Assembly (NCBI GenBank): GCA_964473825.1
Contig: CAYYQL010000002.1
Location: 128,001 to 192,000, forward strand
Direction of reading: 5' to 3'
Length of the DNA stretch: 64,000 nt
Source: an uncultured archaeon
GTDB taxonomy: Archaea; Asgardarchaeota; Thorarchaeia; Thorarchaeales; Thorarchaeaceae
The first letter of the stretch is position 1. Each line of letters starts with the position of its first letter. The position numbers and the translations under genes are program-made. The notes under the pieces were generated by a model. The model worked only from the letters and a program-made list of their open reading frames with translations, was not told the origin of the DNA and did no database searches. Below, in pieces: positions 1,764-13,207 of the stretch.

Positions 1764-2756
1764 ATGTCCAAGGTTTGCCCCAATACAATCATCGTTGAGG
1801 AGAATGCACTTCAGAAACTTGGGAGCCTTCTACAGGGGTATGAGAGAGTCATATGTGTTTCCGATGAAACAATAATTGGGCGATACAGCGCACAGCTCGA
1901 AGCCATTCTTAATCAAGAGCCACACTGGTTACTAGCAGAAGACGCTAGGAATGATGGAGATGAAGCTCTGTCCGAGGGAAGCATAATCATAGGATTTGGA
2001 GGAGGTAGAAGCCTTGATGCAGCCAAAATACTCGCAGCAAAGACTGACATGGATTGGATTTCGATTCCAACGGCTGCTTCCCATGATGGCATAGCAAGCG
2101 AAGTGGCATCGGTGAGTCACGACGGCTATAGGTATTCCAAGAAATGCAGATTGCCCATTGCCATTGTGGCAGATCTGACCATTATGTCGAAAGCACCAGA
2201 AAATCTACAGCGTGCAGGAATGGGCGACATACTCTGTAAAGCATCTAGTCTCAGCGAGTGGAAACTCGCTCACGAAAAGGAAGGAGAACCGCTTGATGAG
2301 GACGCGTTCAGCATGGTGCAGAGGGCTCTGGAAGATGTCTTGAGAAGTGATGACCTGAAAACGCTTGTCCGTGCCGAGATTGATGCAGGTACCGCCATGT
2401 GCATGAATGGCAGCTCGAGACCATGTTCCGGTTCCGAACATGCAATATCTCATGCTATGGACAGAAACCAACATAGTCTGCACGGACTTCAAGTCATTTT
2501 TGCTACTCCCTTGTGTCTGTACTTCCTAGAAAGGGCTGGGTATGCACTTTATTCACAGGAGTACATCAGTGATGTCATTAGGGAGAGGAACCTACCTGCA
2601 AAGTGCAGAGACATGAGCATTTCCAGAGAGATGTATCTGGATTATATCACACATGCCATCCGTATTATGAGAAAGCGTGGACGATATTCTATTCTAGAGA
2701 ACTTGGACAGGAAGACTTTGGCTGAAGTAATCGGCCACCTATACGATTGTGAGTGA
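1764..2756 (+). CDS. egsA: Glycerol-1-phosphate dehydrogenase [NAD(P)+]
   Basis: GFGGGRSLDAAK, IPTAASHDGIAS, SSRPCSGSEHAISH, LHGLQV. Confidence 0.92.
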   Translation: MSKVCPNTIIVEENALQKLGSLLQGYERVICVSDETIIGRYSAQLEAILNQEPHWLLAEDARNDGDEALSEGSIIIGFGGGRSLDAAKILAAKTDMDWISIPTAASHDGIASEVASVSHDGYRYSKKCRLPIAIVADLTIMSKAPENLQRAGMGDILCKASSLSEWKLAHEKEGEPLDEDAFSMVQRALEDVLRSDDLKTLVRAEIDAGTAMCMNGSSRPCSGSEHAISHAMDRNQHSLHGLQVIFATPLCLYFLERAGYALYSQEYISDVIRERNLPAKCRDMSISREMYLDYITHAIRIMRKRGRYSILENLDRKTLAEVIGHLYDCE

Positions 2757-7996: not shown

Positions 7997-9334
7997 CTAT
8001 TTCTTCTTGGCTGCGCCCATGTCTCTGGGCGTCACGTCAAGTACTACGCCCACAGCAACAGTCATACCCATGTCTCGCACTGCGAAACGTCCGAGCTGTG
8101 GAAGTTCCTTGTACTTCTCAATCACCATCGGCTTGAGTGGCACAAGTACCGCGTGCATCGACTCTCCCTTCTTGATGAAATCGGGATTCTCCTCGATGAC
8201 CTGGCCTGAGCGCTGGTCGAGTTTCTTGAGGAGCTTGTCAAATCTACATGCAATCTGTGCAGTATGCGCATGTATGACTGGGGTGTAGCCCACAGTGATT
8301 GCAGTCGGATGCTGGATGACCATTACCTGACCTGTGTAGTCTGCAGCCACAGTTGGTGGTGTATCAACAGGACCAGCAACGTCGCCACGACCGAGGTCTT
8401 TCCTCTCGACACCACGGACATTGAAGCCGATGTTGTCACCAGGAACTGCCTCATCCATTGTTTCATGGTGCATCTCGATGGTCTTGACCTCACCGGTCTT
8501 GTTTGGCGGCATGAACGTAATCTTTGAGCCTACCTTCAGGACACCGGTTTCGACACGACCAACTGGAACAGTACCGACGCCCTTGATAGAGTAGACGTCG
8601 TTGATTGGTACACGTAGGGGTTTGTCTATTGGCTTGGGAGGGAGTTCAACAGTGTCAAGTGCCTCCAGCAGGCTTGGGCCCTCGTACCATGGGGTCAGGT
8701 CAGGAGTCTTCTCCTTCAGGTTGCATGCGGATAGCGCAGAAGTTGGTATGAAGTCCATCTGATCTGTCTTGTAGCCGATGCTCTTCAGGAACCCACCGAC
8801 CTCTTCTTTGACTTCTTTGTACCTGTCCTGGCTGTATTCGACGCTATCATCGTCCATCTTATTGATGCACACAATGATGCTGGGAACACCAAGAGTCATC
8901 GCTAGGTATGCATGCTCCTTGGTCTGACCACCAGGGCCAACTCCGGCTTCAAACTCGCCTCTCTTGGCTGAAACAACCAAAAGAGCAACGTCTGCCTGAG
9001 ATGCACCTGTAATCATGTTCTTGATGAAGTCCTTGTGTCCGGGAGCGTCAATAATCGTGTAGTAGTACTTGTCAGTGAGGAACTTGAAGAACGCAATGTC
9101 TATTGTAAGTCCTCGCTCTCGCTCCTCTTTCAGCCTGTCAAGGGCAAATGCCCAAGCCCAGGAAGGACGGCCAAGCTTCTCGGCCTCAGCCTTGTGCTGC
9201 TGGAATGTTCTCTCGTCTACAGCACCGGTTTCGTAAAGCAATCTGCCCGTCATAGTGCTTTTACCGTGGTCAACGTGCCCTATGACGACCAGGTTTAGGT
9301 GCTCTTTATCTTTCTTACTCAATTGTAACACCAC
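7997..9334 (-). CDS. tuf: Elongation factor aEF-1 alpha
   Basis: GHVDHGKST, EERERGLTID, DAPGHKDFIKNMITGASQAD, LGRFAVRDMG. Confidence 0.98.
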   Translation of the reverse strand: MVLQLSKKDKEHLNLVVIGHVDHGKSTMTGRLLYETGAVDERTFQQHKAEAEKLGRPSWAWAFALDRLKEERERGLTIDIAFFKFLTDKYYYTIIDAPGHKDFIKNMITGASQADVALLVVSAKRGEFEAGVGPGGQTKEHAYLAMTLGVPSIIVCINKMDDDSVEYSQDRYKEVKEEVGGFLKSIGYKTDQMDFIPTSALSACNLKEKTPDLTPWYEGPSLLEALDTVELPPKPIDKPLRVPINDVYSIKGVGTVPVGRVETGVLKVGSKITFMPPNKTGEVKTIEMHHETMDEAVPGDNIGFNVRGVERKDLGRGDVAGPVDTPPTVAADYTGQVMVIQHPTAITVGYTPVIHAHTAQIACRFDKLLKKLDQRSGQVIEENPDFIKKGESMHAVLVPLKPMVIEKYKELPQLGRFAVRDMGMTVAVGVVLDVTPRDMGAAKKK

Positions 9335-9475
9335 GTTTTTATAAAGCCCAATCCCTCATCTGGGGAATGGACTAACCCTCCAGTTTGAGTGTTACTTTTA
9401 ATGATTTCGACAAGGTTCTTTCGCCAGGGCAGGTCATAGCAACACCGAGGAGCAATTCTGTGTGAAATCTCTCAG

Positions 9476-10135
9476 ATGTCCGGAGGACCTGATACGAAAG
9501 TAAGACCATCGGAAGTGAGATATCCGTCCTCTGTAGTAGGCCTGTTCGATGCAGAGAAAGCACCGGGAATCGCAGGTGGGCTTGAGGGGAAGATGGATGA
9601 TGACAGTGTACTGTATCCCTGTTATTTTGGAGCGCCAGCAGCAGGACTCCACTTGGAAGCACTCATCGCGTCCGGTGTCAGCACTGTGGTGATGGCCGGT
9701 GAAGGTGGTTCGATTTCCGCGGATTTGCCCATAGGTTCGATTGTTATTCCTACCTGTGGAATGAGAGAAGAAGGGACATCCTATCATTATCTTCCTCCAC
9801 AGGATACGGTCCTTCCATCGGAATCGCTTCTTAGGCAGATTGAGGAGTCGATTGGAGCAGATGGCTCGACACAGGGTGGTGTATGGACGACAGACGCAGG
9901 ACTCCGCGAAACCAAAGACAAGGTCATAAAATATGCAGAGAAAGGAATTGTAACGGTGGATATGGAATGTACTGCCCTGATGGCCATTGCAATATTCCGA
10001 GAGGTAGAATTCGCGGCAGTGCTTGTTGTCACAGATGAACTCTTTGCTGGACGATGGAAGAGAGGTTTTAGAAGCAGAGAAGTTGAAGTGGCAAAGAAAC
10101 ATGTTGCAGAGAGCATCGCGAGAGTTCTACACTAG
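9476..10135 (+). CDS. Nucleoside phosphorylase (PNP/UDP family)
   Basis: FGAPAA, REEGTSYHY, WTTDA..RET, VDMEC. Confidence 0.88.
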   Translation: MSGGPDTKVRPSEVRYPSSVVGLFDAEKAPGIAGGLEGKMDDDSVLYPCYFGAPAAGLHLEALIASGVSTVVMAGEGGSISADLPIGSIVIPTCGMREEGTSYHYLPPQDTVLPSESLLRQIEESIGADGSTQGGVWTTDAGLRETKDKVIKYAEKGIVTVDMECTALMAIAIFREVEFAAVLVVTDELFAGRWKRGFRSREVEVAKKHVAESIARVLH

Positions 10136-10347
10136 CTCTGTTGTCTGCAGAGACCGGTGTTCCAGTAGTTCTTTGACGGAAGTTCTGGTTCTGCGTGCTA
10201 GGTCTGTCTGACGGTCTTGCCCCAAGACACTTCCGCCCCCACCATCTTCTTCCATGTTTCGGGATTCATCAGTGGCATCATGGAACAAGAGTGTCACTAC
10301 TAGCTGAAAGAAATAGCGAGTGCTCCTTTCCGATCCGTTCAGGTGTG

Positions 10348-10884
10348 TCATACTAAGAGACTGCGTATCCAGTTTCTAACTTGCTCGAAGTCCCGAAAGT
10401 CTATGACTTCAGGAATCTCCTCATCCGTCTTCTGTCTGCTCTTGACGATTTTCTTAACAAGAAATCCCACTAAACGATTATACTTGGAGAAATCAAAGGC
10501 CCCGCCAAATAGGCCTGTCGAAACTGGATTGAGGCCCGGATAGGAAGAGGCGACCTTATCCAAGTATTCTTCTTGTGCAATCTCGCATCTTTCAGGATCC
10601 CCAGCGTCACCACATACTACAAAGAGTGCAGTCTTGGTGTCTGAGAGAAGCGCTAGGTTGGTTTCGATGAATTTGAGAGGCTCCTTTGTCCATTGACCTG
10701 CCTGTATCCCACTCCCAATAACGACGAGGTCGTAGGCTGAGAGGCCCTCAGACGGTTGGGCCTCCTTCAGATTGAAGACATCAACCTGTACATTCTGCTC
10801 ACGTGCAGTCTTCGCCATCTCCTCAACAATACCTATTGTGGTCCCATAGCGTGTCCCGTAGCCAATCAGCATGCGTTCAATCAT
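10348..10884 (-). CDS. Flavodoxin-fold protein (HemG-like)
   Basis: YGTRYGTT FMN loop, YDLVVIGSGI, FGGAFDFSK, DFRDFEQVRNW. Confidence 0.85.
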   Translation of the reverse strand: MIERMLIGYGTRYGTTIGIVEEMAKTAREQNVQVDVFNLKEAQPSEGLSAYDLVVIGSGIQAGQWTKEPLKFIETNLALLSDTKTALFVVCGDAGDPERCEIAQEEYLDKVASSYPGLNPVSTGLFGGAFDFSKYNRLVGFLVKKIVKSRQKTDEEIPEVIDFRDFEQVRNWIRSLLV

Positions 10885-11004
10885 GGCAATCTCCTTCAAT
10901 CAAGACGATCGGGATGCTTTTGAACCTTCCACTCGTCCATAGTGCTAGAGCAGTTTCCTGTAAAGGAGAGAAGCGTTTACTTCTTCAAAAAGAGATAGTG
11001 ATGC

Positions 11005-11109
11005 TCACGTTGCTTCTAACGCAAGCACTTCTTCGCGAGAGGGGGTGTTGTTACCTTGGGAGGAGACATCATTGCCCTGAAGCTGCTCAGCGATAGGCTG
11101 CGAGGTCAT
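11005..11109 (-). CDS. Putative 34-aa microprotein MTSQPIAEQLQGNDVSSQGNNTPSREEVLALEAT
   Basis: ATG 6 nt after the previous stop, AGGAGA SD, followed by a T-rich tract; no homology recognised. Confidence 0.35.
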   Translation of the reverse strand: MTSQPIAEQLQGNDVSSQGNNTPSREEVLALEAT

Positions 11110-11115
11110 AACAGA

Positions 11116-11199
11116 CTATCTCCTAAAGTATGAGTATGCAACAGCATCAGCGGAATCGGGATACTTCATTGTCTTCGTTTTGTTCTTAGCAAGTGCCAT
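11116..11199 (-). CDS. 27-aa microprotein MALAKNKTKTMKYPDSADAVAYSYFRR
   Basis: Strong SD GAGGTGA 7 nt upstream; paralogous to the upstream peptide. Confidence 0.65.
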   Translation of the reverse strand: MALAKNKTKTMKYPDSADAVAYSYFRR

Positions 11200-11206
11200 G
11201 ATTGAT

Positions 11207-11308
11207 TCACCTCAGAATGGTGTAGTATGCGTAACCAATGGCTTGGGTAGACTGAATGGTCTTGTTCTTCTTCTCGGAGTCAGTTCGGTTGTTGGTTGTT
11301 AGAGCCAT
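11207..11308 (-). CDS. 33-aa microprotein MALTTNNRTDSEKKNKTIQSTQAIGYAYYTILR
   Basis: TATA box about 32 nt upstream; paralogous to the downstream peptide. Confidence 0.65.
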   Translation of the reverse strand: MALTTNNRTDSEKKNKTIQSTQAIGYAYYTILR

Positions 11309-11340
11309 GATATTTCACAAGGATTACCACTCAGAATCAG

Positions 11341-11395
11341 TATATAATGGAAAGCCACAATGGAGGGTCACGCAATGAAGTCACAATTTGTGACT
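11341..11395 (-). promoter_or_regulatory. TATA box (TTATATA, 11341-11347) plus perfect palindrome AGTCACAA-T-TTGTGACT (11379-11395)
   Basis: Directly read; palindrome lies about 30 bp upstream of the TATA box. Confidence 0.6.
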
Positions 11396-11517
11396 ATGTG
11401 GATTGTGCTCCGGGCTTGGTGAGAACTAAGGAGATAGGCTGTTCGTGAGCCCATGGATTCCATTCTCTACAGCAAGGGATCCTTCGAAAAAACGGCCCAC
11501 AAAGTGCGAAATCGAGT

Positions 11518-12207
11518 CTATCTTGCCGACCGTGCTACACGTTCACGTTCATCCTTTCGGGAGATCGCATAGCTTGAAGGGTCTGCATTATATGCAAGAA
11601 GCAGTTCATCAACGATGCATTGCTCGACAGGTTTTGCGCTCTTATGGGCCGCCCGAATAGCGCCCACCGAGAGATACCTCAGGGCTATGTCGATTCTACG
11701 CTGTGGAGCAACATCGACTGAGCGGGGATATGCCATTCCACCGTAAGAAATGCGGGTTGTTTCCTCTGCTGGAGCTGCATTCTCTACGGCCGTCACCAAG
11801 ACCTGCATAGGATTCAAGCCGGTCCTATAGTCGATAATCTCGAAAGCCCGTCGAAGGAAAGAGATCATGCGGAGTTTCTTACCAGCACCTCGACCAGTAC
11901 GAGTCTTCTTTTCCTTGCGTTTTCCGGCGTTCATGAGCTTGTTAACAAAGCGCTCTACTATAGGCACTCTAGATTTGTGAAATCTGCTTCGAGCATGTCT
12001 TCCAGATGTATGAGGAATCAGAACAGGCTTGAGTGAAATGTAACGTTCAAGGCCAATATCCTTGATCTCTACCCTTGATGGATCCCACTTACCGAATAGA
12101 AGAAGGTCCGGAGTTTCTTCTGGTTGAATAGCCTCAGGGGGTTGACCGCCTTCGGGTTGTTCCTGTTCTCCTTCCACATCATTATCGACAGTTTCTTCTT
12201 CAGACAT
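11518..12207 (-). CDS. rps7: 30S ribosomal protein S7 (uS7)
   Basis: LLLFGKWD, PHTSGRH, PIVERF, VDVAPQRRID, ERVARSAR. Confidence 0.97.
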   Translation of the reverse strand: MSEEETVDNDVEGEQEQPEGGQPPEAIQPEETPDLLLFGKWDPSRVEIKDIGLERYISLKPVLIPHTSGRHARSRFHKSRVPIVERFVNKLMNAGKRKEKKTRTGRGAGKKLRMISFLRRAFEIIDYRTGLNPMQVLVTAVENAAPAEETTRISYGGMAYPRSVDVAPQRRIDIALRYLSVGAIRAAHKSAKPVEQCIVDELLLAYNADPSSYAISRKDERERVARSAR

Positions 12208-12216
12208 TGTGAGCAC

Positions 12217-12660
12217 CTAGCGAATTGGTTTCTCGGCCTTACCATAGATTAGAGACTCAAGGCTGACGCCATTGACCTTGATAACTTTCCATCGCACGCC
12301 CGGAAGGTCACCCATAGCCCCACCCATTGCACCGCCGATGCCTTCCACAAGCACTTGATCGTGTTCGTCTATGTATTTTAGACCGCCATCGCCCGGGATG
12401 AAAGCTGTGATTTGTTTACCATTCTTGGACAACTGCAATCGAACAGCCTTCCTTATAGCCGAGTTTGGTTGCTTACTCTCAATTCCAACCTTCTCAAGCA
12501 CAATTCCTCGAGCCTGAGGAGCTCCCTCTAGAGGATCGGTCTTCTTCCTTAGATTCAATACTTGCCTTTTGTAGCTGGCCTTCTTCCATCTAAATCGCTT
12601 TCTCTTGGCCTTTAATGCCCGGCCAGCGAATTCGCCCAACGGACTCTTCGACCCTGTCAA
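12217..12660 (-). CDS. rps12: 30S ribosomal protein S12 (uS12)
   Basis: [29 protein letters not shown]. Confidence 0.98.
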
Positions 12661-12772
12661 TTACATTACCTCTATCATAGCTAAGGAGCCTACATTCATG
12701 GTGTGCTCTGTGGGTGGTCAGTGCATCGCCCTTATGTATGCTTAAAAGCATTATGAAACGGGGCTGTGTGTT

Positions 12773-13207
12773 TCATGCGATAACAACATTATCAACGTCA
12801 AAATGTCGTCTGACAAGAATCCGAGCTCGCGCAACGTTACGGCCATCCTTGCCTATTGCAATGCCACGATCCTCTTCGTTCACAGTGACGCTAGCAACCT
12901 TAGTTCCATCTTTCTGTTCGGAGATTACCACATTCTTAACTCGTGCTGGGGCTAGCGCACTCTTTACAAACTCCTCTGGAGTGTCCGCGATTTCGACAAT
13001 GTCAATATGCCTGCCCAAGACTTCTGATGCGTGTCGTACGTTTGACCCCCCCTTTCCTATGGCTTTTCCCAAGTGCTTTCTGGGCACTACAAAAATCAAT
13101 CGTTCTGCTTCATCATCTCTAACGACATCAACTGCAGGAGCACCTGTGATTTTTTCGAATGAAGCAATGAGTGACATATCCTCCATTGAGATCTTGACAC
13201 TGGGCAA
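12773..13207 (-). CDS. nusA: Archaeal NusA (two KH domains)
   Basis: AIGKGGSNV and AIGKDGRNV KH motifs; synteny; TTG start at 13207. Confidence 0.93.
   Translation of the reverse strand: MPSVKISMEDMSLIASFEKITGAPAVDVVRDDEAERLIFVVPRKHLGKAIGKGGSNVRHASEVLGRHIDIVEIADTPEEFVKSALAPARVKNVVISEQKDGTKVASVTVNEEDRGIAIGKDGRNVARARILVRRHFDVDNVVIA

Follow-up and report, generated by a model that had tools for sequence, protein, structure and literature searches.

A multicopy family of micro-protein operons with a putative palindromic operator in the archaeal family Thorarchaeaceae

Introduction

In an uncultured archaeon (Asgardarchaeota; GTDB family Thorarchaeaceae), the S12-S7 ribosomal protein genes are separated from a flavodoxin-like gene by a gap in which a reading made from the letters alone, here called the sequence-only reading, had placed a hidden, regulated operon of paralogous micropeptides. 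The locus raises the question of whether such short reading frames are genes at all and, if they are, what controls them and what their products do. Asgard archaea are the closest known relatives of eukaryotes, and to our knowledge almost nothing is known of their gene regulation or of the part of their proteome that falls below annotation. Coordinates below are those of the window, by which we mean the whole stretch of 64,000 nucleotides that was analysed.

Results and Discussion

Layout of the locus

The operon consists of three ORFs on the minus strand (11308-11005), in the gap between the S12-S7 genes (S7, 11518-12216, with its cassette-side end at 11518) and the flavodoxin-like gene (10899-10348). 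All of the elements named by the sequence-only reading were present on this strand: a motif shared by ORF1 and ORF2, a GAGGTGA sequence over the first stop codon, a third ORF and a T-rich tract, with a TATA box (11348-11341) and a perfect 8-1-8 palindrome (11395-11379) upstream. Three further features had not been listed, namely an RNA hairpin that holds the ORF3 stop codon, additional operator half-sites, and the presence of the cassette in multiple copies.

The palindrome, with the core GTCACAAnTTGTGAC, is the putative distal operator, a designation that draws on genomic and family-wide counts against controls. Downstream of it stand two half-site-like repeats on the minus strand, GTGAC (11371-11367) and TTGTGGC (11360-11354), at a spacing of 13 nt; the columns of these repeats are conserved in an alignment of 20 promoters from 13 genera as well as among 59 cassettes, and the second repeat abuts a G+C-rich (weak) BRE position. 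The TATA box (ATTATATA) follows at a fixed distance, position 47 from the start of the palindrome in all cassettes. A promoter-proximal TTGTGAA repeat (11320-11314) is located at the predicted transcription start, where the column block CTTGTGAAA is conserved in the promoter alignment. From archaeal promoter geometry, we infer that transcription would begin about 24-27 nt after the TATA box and leave a leader of about 8-11 nt.

ORF1 (11308-11207) encodes a basic peptide of 33 aa (pI 9.7) with the N-terminus MAL..NNR..KKN and the C-terminal motif ST.A[IL].YAY....R. The Shine-Dalgarno sequence for ORF2, GAGGTGA (11213-11207), overlaps the last Arg codon and the stop of ORF1 and ends 7 nt before the ORF2 ATG, an arrangement that is conserved among cassettes. 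ORF2 (11199-11116), a paralogue of ORF1, encodes a basic peptide of 27 aa (pI 9.9) with the C-terminus ..AY.YFRR, and its last two Arg codons are at the same time the Shine-Dalgarno sequence for ORF3, AGGAGA (11124-11119), 9 nt before the ORF3 ATG. The product of ORF3 (11109-11005) is an acidic peptide of 34 aa (pI 4.1) with a variable, disordered body and a near-invariant tail (..EVLALEAT). Because the C-terminal Arg codons of one ORF contain the Shine-Dalgarno site of the next, the three ORFs appear to be translationally coupled and should be co-produced.

The wider neighbourhood departs from the order S12-S7-EF2-EF1alpha that is customary in archaea. At 7997-12660 of the window this order is broken: no EF-2 gene lies between the S7 gene and the EF-1alpha gene (7997-9334), and the interval is occupied by the micropeptide cassette, the flavodoxin-like gene and an opposite-strand gene for a PNP_UDP_1 phosphorylase. 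At its N-terminus the S7 protein is extended by about 40 residues, and this extension is acidic.

Copies and chromosomal positions

The cassette is present in five copies within this 3.27-Mb genome. Three palindrome sites head the paralogous cassettes on C2 (the window), C30 and C36, whose promoters are nearly identical and whose ORFs have diverged yet retain their frames. A fourth copy, on C13, was found in a promoter profile search, and a fifth, on C6 and with another promoter, was found via its 3' hairpin. BLASTN matches to the cassette were obtained from 21 of the 24 genomes searched in the same GTDB family and from none of 16 genomes of other families, and divergent copies were recovered from the two BLASTN-negative genera by peptide and pattern searches. 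A pattern describing the 3' hairpin was matched in 36 of 59 family genomes, in none of the 191 genomes taken from other families in this phylum, and in no control. Scanned against one genome per species for 185,579 species, the same pattern gave 37 matches, all of them in Thorarchaeota-type MAGs. No cassette outside Thorarchaeota was found either among the other-family genomes of the phylum or in this 185,579-species scan. The collection assembled in this way comprises about 59 cassettes from at least 13 genera.

The copies occupy stable syntenic chromosomal loci, and for this reason we rejected the possibility that the cassette is a mobile element. Window-type copies share a neighbourhood of S7, flavodoxin-like and EamA-like transporter genes, the last adjoining the S7-region copy in three other genera. 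Several loci carry additional tandem copies of peptide ORFs. Cassettes of the C30 type always have a PolX/PHP polymerase gene on one side and a convergent tRNA gene on the other (L063, G000:C30:16000-27000; about 14 syntenic loci), and after these come genes for a small IclR/MarR-like winged-helix protein and an amino-acid kinase.

The divergent cassettes at G000:C6:11300-11900 (L156, minus strand) and in L158 (G021:C1:239059-242142) belong to the same peptide family and are headed by a second class of operator, GTTTG-n5-CAAAC. The C6 site is a perfect palindrome of 17 nt placed between a TATA-like box and ORF1, and two of the four ORFs of the C6 cassette have TTG starts. This class of site suggests that a second regulator controls the sub-family.

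The reading frames as protein-coding genes

Loss of the reading frames in relatives was among the outcomes that, according to the sequence-only reading, would refute its proposal. The frames are kept in about 59 cassettes from at least 13 genera and, overall, across at least 14 genera with substitutions of the coding type. Between copy pairs, differences at codon positions 1/2/3 numbered 153/138/225 for ORF1, 121/86/344 for ORF2 and 54/58/108 for ORF3, and the excess at third positions was confined to the annotated frames. Codon differences divided into synonymous and non-synonymous ones at 122/233 (ORF1), 252/193 (ORF2) and 52/111 (ORF3), against 8-63/142-371 in shifted frames, so that synonymous differences were 3-6 times commoner in the annotated frame than in the two shifted ones. 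Invariant Ser, Ala and Leu residues are encoded by many synonymous codons, and both the start codons and the Shine-Dalgarno sites are conserved among the roughly 59 cassettes. Judged by these substitution patterns, all three frames are under selection at the protein level.

We give hardly any credence to the alternative that the unit is a non-coding regulatory RNA in which the ORFs are incidental. It is true that conservation at the DNA level is highest in the promoter and in the 3' hairpin, but the codon-position and synonymous patterns fit the annotated frames only, and a non-coding unit would not account for the conserved start codons and Shine-Dalgarno sites. A search of the window from 9000 to 13000 against Rfam, with E values up to 1, gave no match, and in genus g5 (L158) the ORF3 tail motif persists with a different hairpin sequence.

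Families and properties of the peptides

Across the cassettes, ORF1 follows the consensus MAL..NNR..S..KKN, 3-7 variable residues and QST.A[IL].YAY....R; ORF2 reads MALAK, 8-14 variable residues and ST[KR]AI..AYFRR; and in ORF3 a variable body, acidic and rich in Ser/Thr, precedes the tail L[ST]..EVLALEAT. The paralogy of ORF1 and ORF2 that had been read from a few shared residues is true homology of two peptide families, as seen in the profile-profile comparison (hhalign, 97.7%, E 2e-12). A search of 1.84 billion representative proteins with the ORF1 HMM returned 38 clusters. The true matches are stand-alone peptides of about 30-37 aa, and no fusion of an ORF1-type peptide to any domain was found among these representatives. 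Other matches were set aside: one of 532 aa is an unrelated repeat protein, and those of 46-103 aa are over-extended gene calls.

None of the three peptides was assigned to a family in Pfam, NCBIfam or PHROGs, and the ESM Atlas gave no usable match for them. In Pfam, ORF1 (11210-11308) matched the N-terminal segment of crescentin with 17.9 bits (E 0.005), below the cut-off of 27, and this match is most likely due to chance, though it is curious beside the bactofilin-like partner in the regulon. Readings of the C-terminal motif as a PIP-box (PCNA-binding) or as HbYX (proteasome-gate) were rejected on account of a misfit in spacing.

All three peptides are very hydrophilic (GRAVY about -0.7, hydrophobic runs of at most 6 residues), with pI values put in this assessment at 10.4-10.7 for ORF1 and ORF2 and at 4.6 for ORF3. 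Their sequence properties gave no membrane segment or signal peptide in any of the three. AF2 models place helical C-termini over the conserved motifs at low-to-moderate confidence (pLDDT 64-68), with the C-terminal helix of ORF3 at residues 25-32.

These properties bear on the suggestion, made in the sequence-only reading, that the peptides have the leader-plus-core design of RiPP precursors, which would here be matured by unlinked enzymes. The genes are multicopy and their products are small peptides with conserved Ser/Thr and Tyr residues, and in other systems, such as the prochlorosins, precursors occur scattered far from their maturase. In these families, however, both ends are conserved and the middle is variable, the putative core would be the most conserved part, no fused or longer forms exist, and the searches of Pfam, NCBIfam and PHROGs gave no match to a precursor family. 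As the same reading had remarked, no modifying enzyme is adjacent at the window locus, where the neighbours are S7, the flavodoxin-like protein and the PNP_UDP_1 protein. Over about 40 loci the recurrent neighbours are of a housekeeping kind (PolX, amino-acid kinase, URO-D, methyltransferase, aaRS, OsmC, HDAC and hydrolase), with no gene for a radical-SAM, YcaO, Lan or ATP-grasp enzyme or a peptidase among them. We consider a RiPP origin very improbable, and this part of the earlier proposal was not supported. The peptides may still act in signalling or as peptide regulators, the other roles put forward in the sequence-only reading.

A small regulon around the palindrome

Genomes were scanned for the palindrome, as the sequence-only reading had recommended, to define its regulon. 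The 15-nt core occurs at five sites in the 3.27-Mb genome against none for its reversed control, and 44 perfect palindromes were found in 31 family genomes against none for controls, nearly all of them at the head of cassettes. The promoter alignment contains four conserved blocks, formed by the palindrome, the GTGAC/GTGGC repeats, the BRE position with the TATA box, and the TTGTGAA repeat. On these counts the palindrome is the predicted operator of a regulon, and the regulon that it defines is small, so the earlier description of the operon as regulated is borne out to that extent.

The main palindrome outside the cassettes is located between a gene for a 104-aa HTH_45 winged-helix protein and a gene for a 414-aa bactofilin-like protein. 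The order of winged-helix gene, palindrome, TATA box and bactofilin-like gene is kept in most family genomes, and the spacing from palindrome to TATA box is constant within each type of promoter (47 nt in cassettes, 34 nt at the bactofilin-like gene). Variants of the operator, with a GTAAC half-site or an AAGAT centre, are common to the bactofilin site and the cassettes in several genera. Counterparts of the HTH_45 protein in the family's other genera share 59-80% identity with it. The protein is weakly Sso10a-like, and its gene is not beside the palindrome in about a quarter of the genomes. It is by adjacency only that this protein is the candidate regulator.

Another perfect palindrome, at G000:C63:5948-5962 (L062), is followed after about 60 nt by an ORF of some 440 aa that contains an HTH-like segment. 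This site has no recognisable TATA box at the usual spacing and is conserved in a sister genome (G002:C15, L095); it may mark a further member of the regulon or be an intragenic match that arose by chance.

In other genera the same promoter, usually together with an ORF1-type peptide, precedes genes for MFS_3 and MFS_1 transporters and for an uncharacterised membrane protein. Such loci raise the possibility that the peptides are exported without leaders through co-regulated MFS-type exporters, as a multi-peptide bacteriocin or an intercellular signal. Several features would suit such a role: the operon encodes, in tandem, cationic paralogues of about 30 aa that lack leader sequences; in some genera MFS_3 ('secretion effector') and MFS_1 genes stand behind the peptide ORFs within one operon; and an EamA-like gene adjoins the S7-region copy. 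Against it stand the strong hydrophilicity of the peptides, which have neither an amphipathic hydrophobic core nor a Trp-rich face, the acidic, low-complexity nature of the third peptide, and the fact that the same type of peptide precedes different, unrelated membrane proteins. In the genome studied here, moreover, no exporter carries the operator. Taken together, we regard export as quite improbable.

The 3' end of the cassette

Over the final eight codons of ORF3, the stop codon and the bases that follow, there is almost no variation, not even at synonymous sites. This stretch forms the RNA hairpin (11028-11001, minus strand), which has 11-12 bp and a GAAG-type four-base loop and is made up of the last 7-8 ORF3 codons, the TGA stop and 4 further bases. 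Among 42 copies, 92.7% of the pair cells hold standard pairs, four of the pairs show compensatory double changes, and none of 500 shuffles reached the observed covariation score. A G-U pair is kept in 38 of the 42 copies, which favours an RNA element of the sense strand over an inverted repeat at the DNA level. The peptide is under selection as well: the ORF3 frame is open from the ORF2 stop to the stop in the hairpin in 27 of 27 hairpin-bearing cassettes, and Leu and Ser/Thr residues just 5' of the hairpin are conserved with varied codons. In C30-type cassettes a different acidic third ORF again has its stop inside a hairpin ahead of a T-rich tract. By these patterns, the end of ORF3 is dual-coded, with the peptide motif and the RNA hairpin sharing the same bases, and we see in it an unusually clean case of dual coding.

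At the window locus a T5 tract (10991-10987, minus strand) lies 10 nt past the hairpin and gives the unit a terminator-like 3' end. A T run within about 10 nt, or more broadly a T-rich tract 3' of the hairpin, was seen in nearly all copies, which matches the plan of an intrinsic terminator, a G+C-rich hairpin followed by a T run. A sigma-70 promoter/terminator scanner, whose model does not extend to archaeal promoters, found nothing; it perhaps missed the hairpin because the T5 tract starts 10 nt past the stem, beyond the scanner's own search range. At 29 loci the next gene 3' of the hairpin was convergent in 11 cases, on the same strand within 250 nt in 8 and farther away in 8, with no such gene in the remaining 2, a distribution that indicates a self-contained unit. 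The hairpin and T tract are best read as a terminator or a 3'-end stabiliser. Attenuation of a downstream gene was rejected as a general role for the three-ORF cassettes, many of which face convergent genes.

Role of the peptides

Our preferred reading, to which we assign a probability of about 0.5, is that the peptides are trans-acting cytoplasmic micro-proteins that are made together as the output of a winged-helix regulon. The cassette would be a self-contained operon of three genes, two for paralogous basic micro-proteins (ORF1 and ORF2) and one for an acidic micro-protein (ORF3). Transcription would start about 10 nt before ORF1 from the TATA box with its weak BRE, and would depend on a dimeric factor bound to the palindrome and to the half-site repeats downstream of it, for which the conserved 104-aa HTH_45 winged-helix protein is the best candidate. 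The helical C-terminal motifs might then pair the basic with the acidic partners, or dock on a conserved partner in the cell. The third ORF varies among cassettes, with another acidic ORF in the C30 type and none on C13, and since some cassettes are without an ORF3 of the window type, a strict 1:1:1 complex would not be universal. The regulon is probably a stress or an envelope/transport response, given that MFS exporters and a membrane protein also come under it in other genera.

An ORF1-type peptide directly before a transporter gene, found at 11 or more loci, would suit a cis-acting leader equally well. On that account ORF1 and ORF2, and perhaps the ORF3 tail, would be leader or arrest peptides on which a small molecule or drug causes ribosomes to stall at or near the stop codon, thereby controlling the neighbouring Shine-Dalgarno site or terminator hairpin and the expression of what lies downstream. 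Lengths of 27-37 aa match the exit tunnel, the C-terminal motif is conserved and aromatic, and the terminal Arg is near-invariant even where it is outside a Shine-Dalgarno sequence (CGC TGA, L049), while all three stop codons are in use. The loci at which the shared promoter and an ORF1-type ORF directly precede genes for MFS or other membrane proteins come from at least 9 genera; in L054 and L023 a hairpin and a T6 run immediately follow the ORF1 stop, and the ORF3 stop lies within the terminator hairpin. The bacterial leader SpeFL is a close parallel in its length, aromatic domain, Arg, indifference to the stop codon and hairpin. A second conserved class of uORF also precedes type-B MFS genes, this genome included. 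Against this account stand the cassettes themselves: that of the window, like some 45 of 60 others, forms a free-standing unit that ends in a terminator of its own, the next gene is often convergent (11 of 29 loci) or, for the C30 type, a tRNA gene facing the cassette, so that there is often nothing to regulate, and no consistent alternative RNA fold is found between ORF1 and the transporter genes. A short ORF directly upstream of a regulated gene is thus absent at the window cassette and present at the related transporter loci. The leader account is the main rival to our preferred reading, and we consider it unlikely.

The second class of micro-ORF has the motif GH[FK].P..AY.[VL]T and ends just upstream of type-B MFS genes at G000:C12:~2430-2560 (minus strand), L049, L050, L051, L055, L016 and L058. 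Its promoter in this genome is unrelated, and L016 and L058 also have it within stand-alone cassettes. This micro-ORF resembles a conserved uORF, or leader, for an efflux pump. The broader proposal that the ORF1/ORF2-type peptides and these uORFs are the first ribosome-arrest sensors of archaea, in which termination stalling triggered by a drug or metabolite gates hairpins or Shine-Dalgarno sites and from which the stand-alone cassettes are spin-offs, is speculative and distinctly unlikely. We found no description of arrest-peptide control in archaea in the searchable literature; if the leader account were true, it would extend nascent-peptide sensing to that domain.

Returning to the proposed trans-acting micro-proteins, the searchable papers on Thorarchaeota bactofilins, micropeptides and RiPPs yielded no description of these peptides, their operator or their regulon. 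The present analysis supplies a lineage-wide, multicopy family of micro-proteins, a defined operator sequence and, in the HTH_45 winged-helix protein, a named candidate regulator, and the small regulon would connect the peptides with exporters and with a cytoskeletal protein of the bactofilin-like type. Family, operator, regulator and regulon can all be tested without culture, using recombinant protein together with synthetic DNA and peptides.

Comparison with known systems

The closest likeness to the promoter is found in the regulon of TFB-RF1 (PF1088) of Pyrococcus furiosus and the Thermococcales, in which a palindrome of 13-15 nt with an AAnTT centre precedes a weak BRE and a TATA box at a constant spacing, and whose members are few, comprising the neighbourhood of the regulator itself and a transporter of the drug-exporter type (PMC5937170). 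Both systems thus have a palindrome with an AAnTT centre at a set distance from a weak BRE and TATA box, a tiny regulon around the regulator neighbourhood and a transporter, and a site that is conserved across a whole order or family. They differ in the bases that carry specificity (TCTGAAnTTCAGA there, GTCACAAnTTGTGAC here), in the extra half-site repeats that reach down to the start site in the cassettes, and in their targets, which are here micropeptide cassettes and a bactofilin-like gene. The candidate regulator of the cassettes is an HTH_45 protein; the likeness is drawn from the architecture of the site, and activation by recruitment of TFB would be our inference only.

With respect to arrest leaders, SpeFL is a leader of 34 aa with an aromatic effector domain that arrests with Arg34 in the P site ahead of any stop codon, and its hairpin includes the 3' end of the ORF (bioRxiv 10.1101/604074). 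Leaders of the SpeFL/TnaC type share with the cassette peptides a length of about 30-34 aa, an aromatic C-terminal segment, a terminal Arg before any stop and an RNA hairpin that takes in the 3' end of the small ORF. They are bacterial, whereas the cassettes are archaeal and without sequence similarity to them, and the window cassette is a chain of three ORFs that usually has no downstream target gene.

The leaderless multi-peptide bacteriocins of Firmicutes (aureocin A70, enterocin L50, garvicin KS) are hydrophobic or amphipathic, membrane-active peptides. Their operons resemble the cassettes in having tandem paralogous cationic peptides of about 30 aa without leaders and, in some cases, transporter genes within the operon. 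The peptides described here are in contrast very hydrophilic and include an acidic member, immunity and ABC genes are absent, and MFS genes are found at a minority of related loci, the window locus itself being without a transporter.

Finally, the cassettes share with prokaryotic small-protein genes in general a size below annotation cut-offs, conservation at the protein level and induction by a regulator of the stress type, the last of which is predicted here. What distinguishes them is their multicopy nature, the shared and portable promoter module, the trio of two basic peptides and an acidic one, and a stop codon placed within a dual-coded terminator hairpin.
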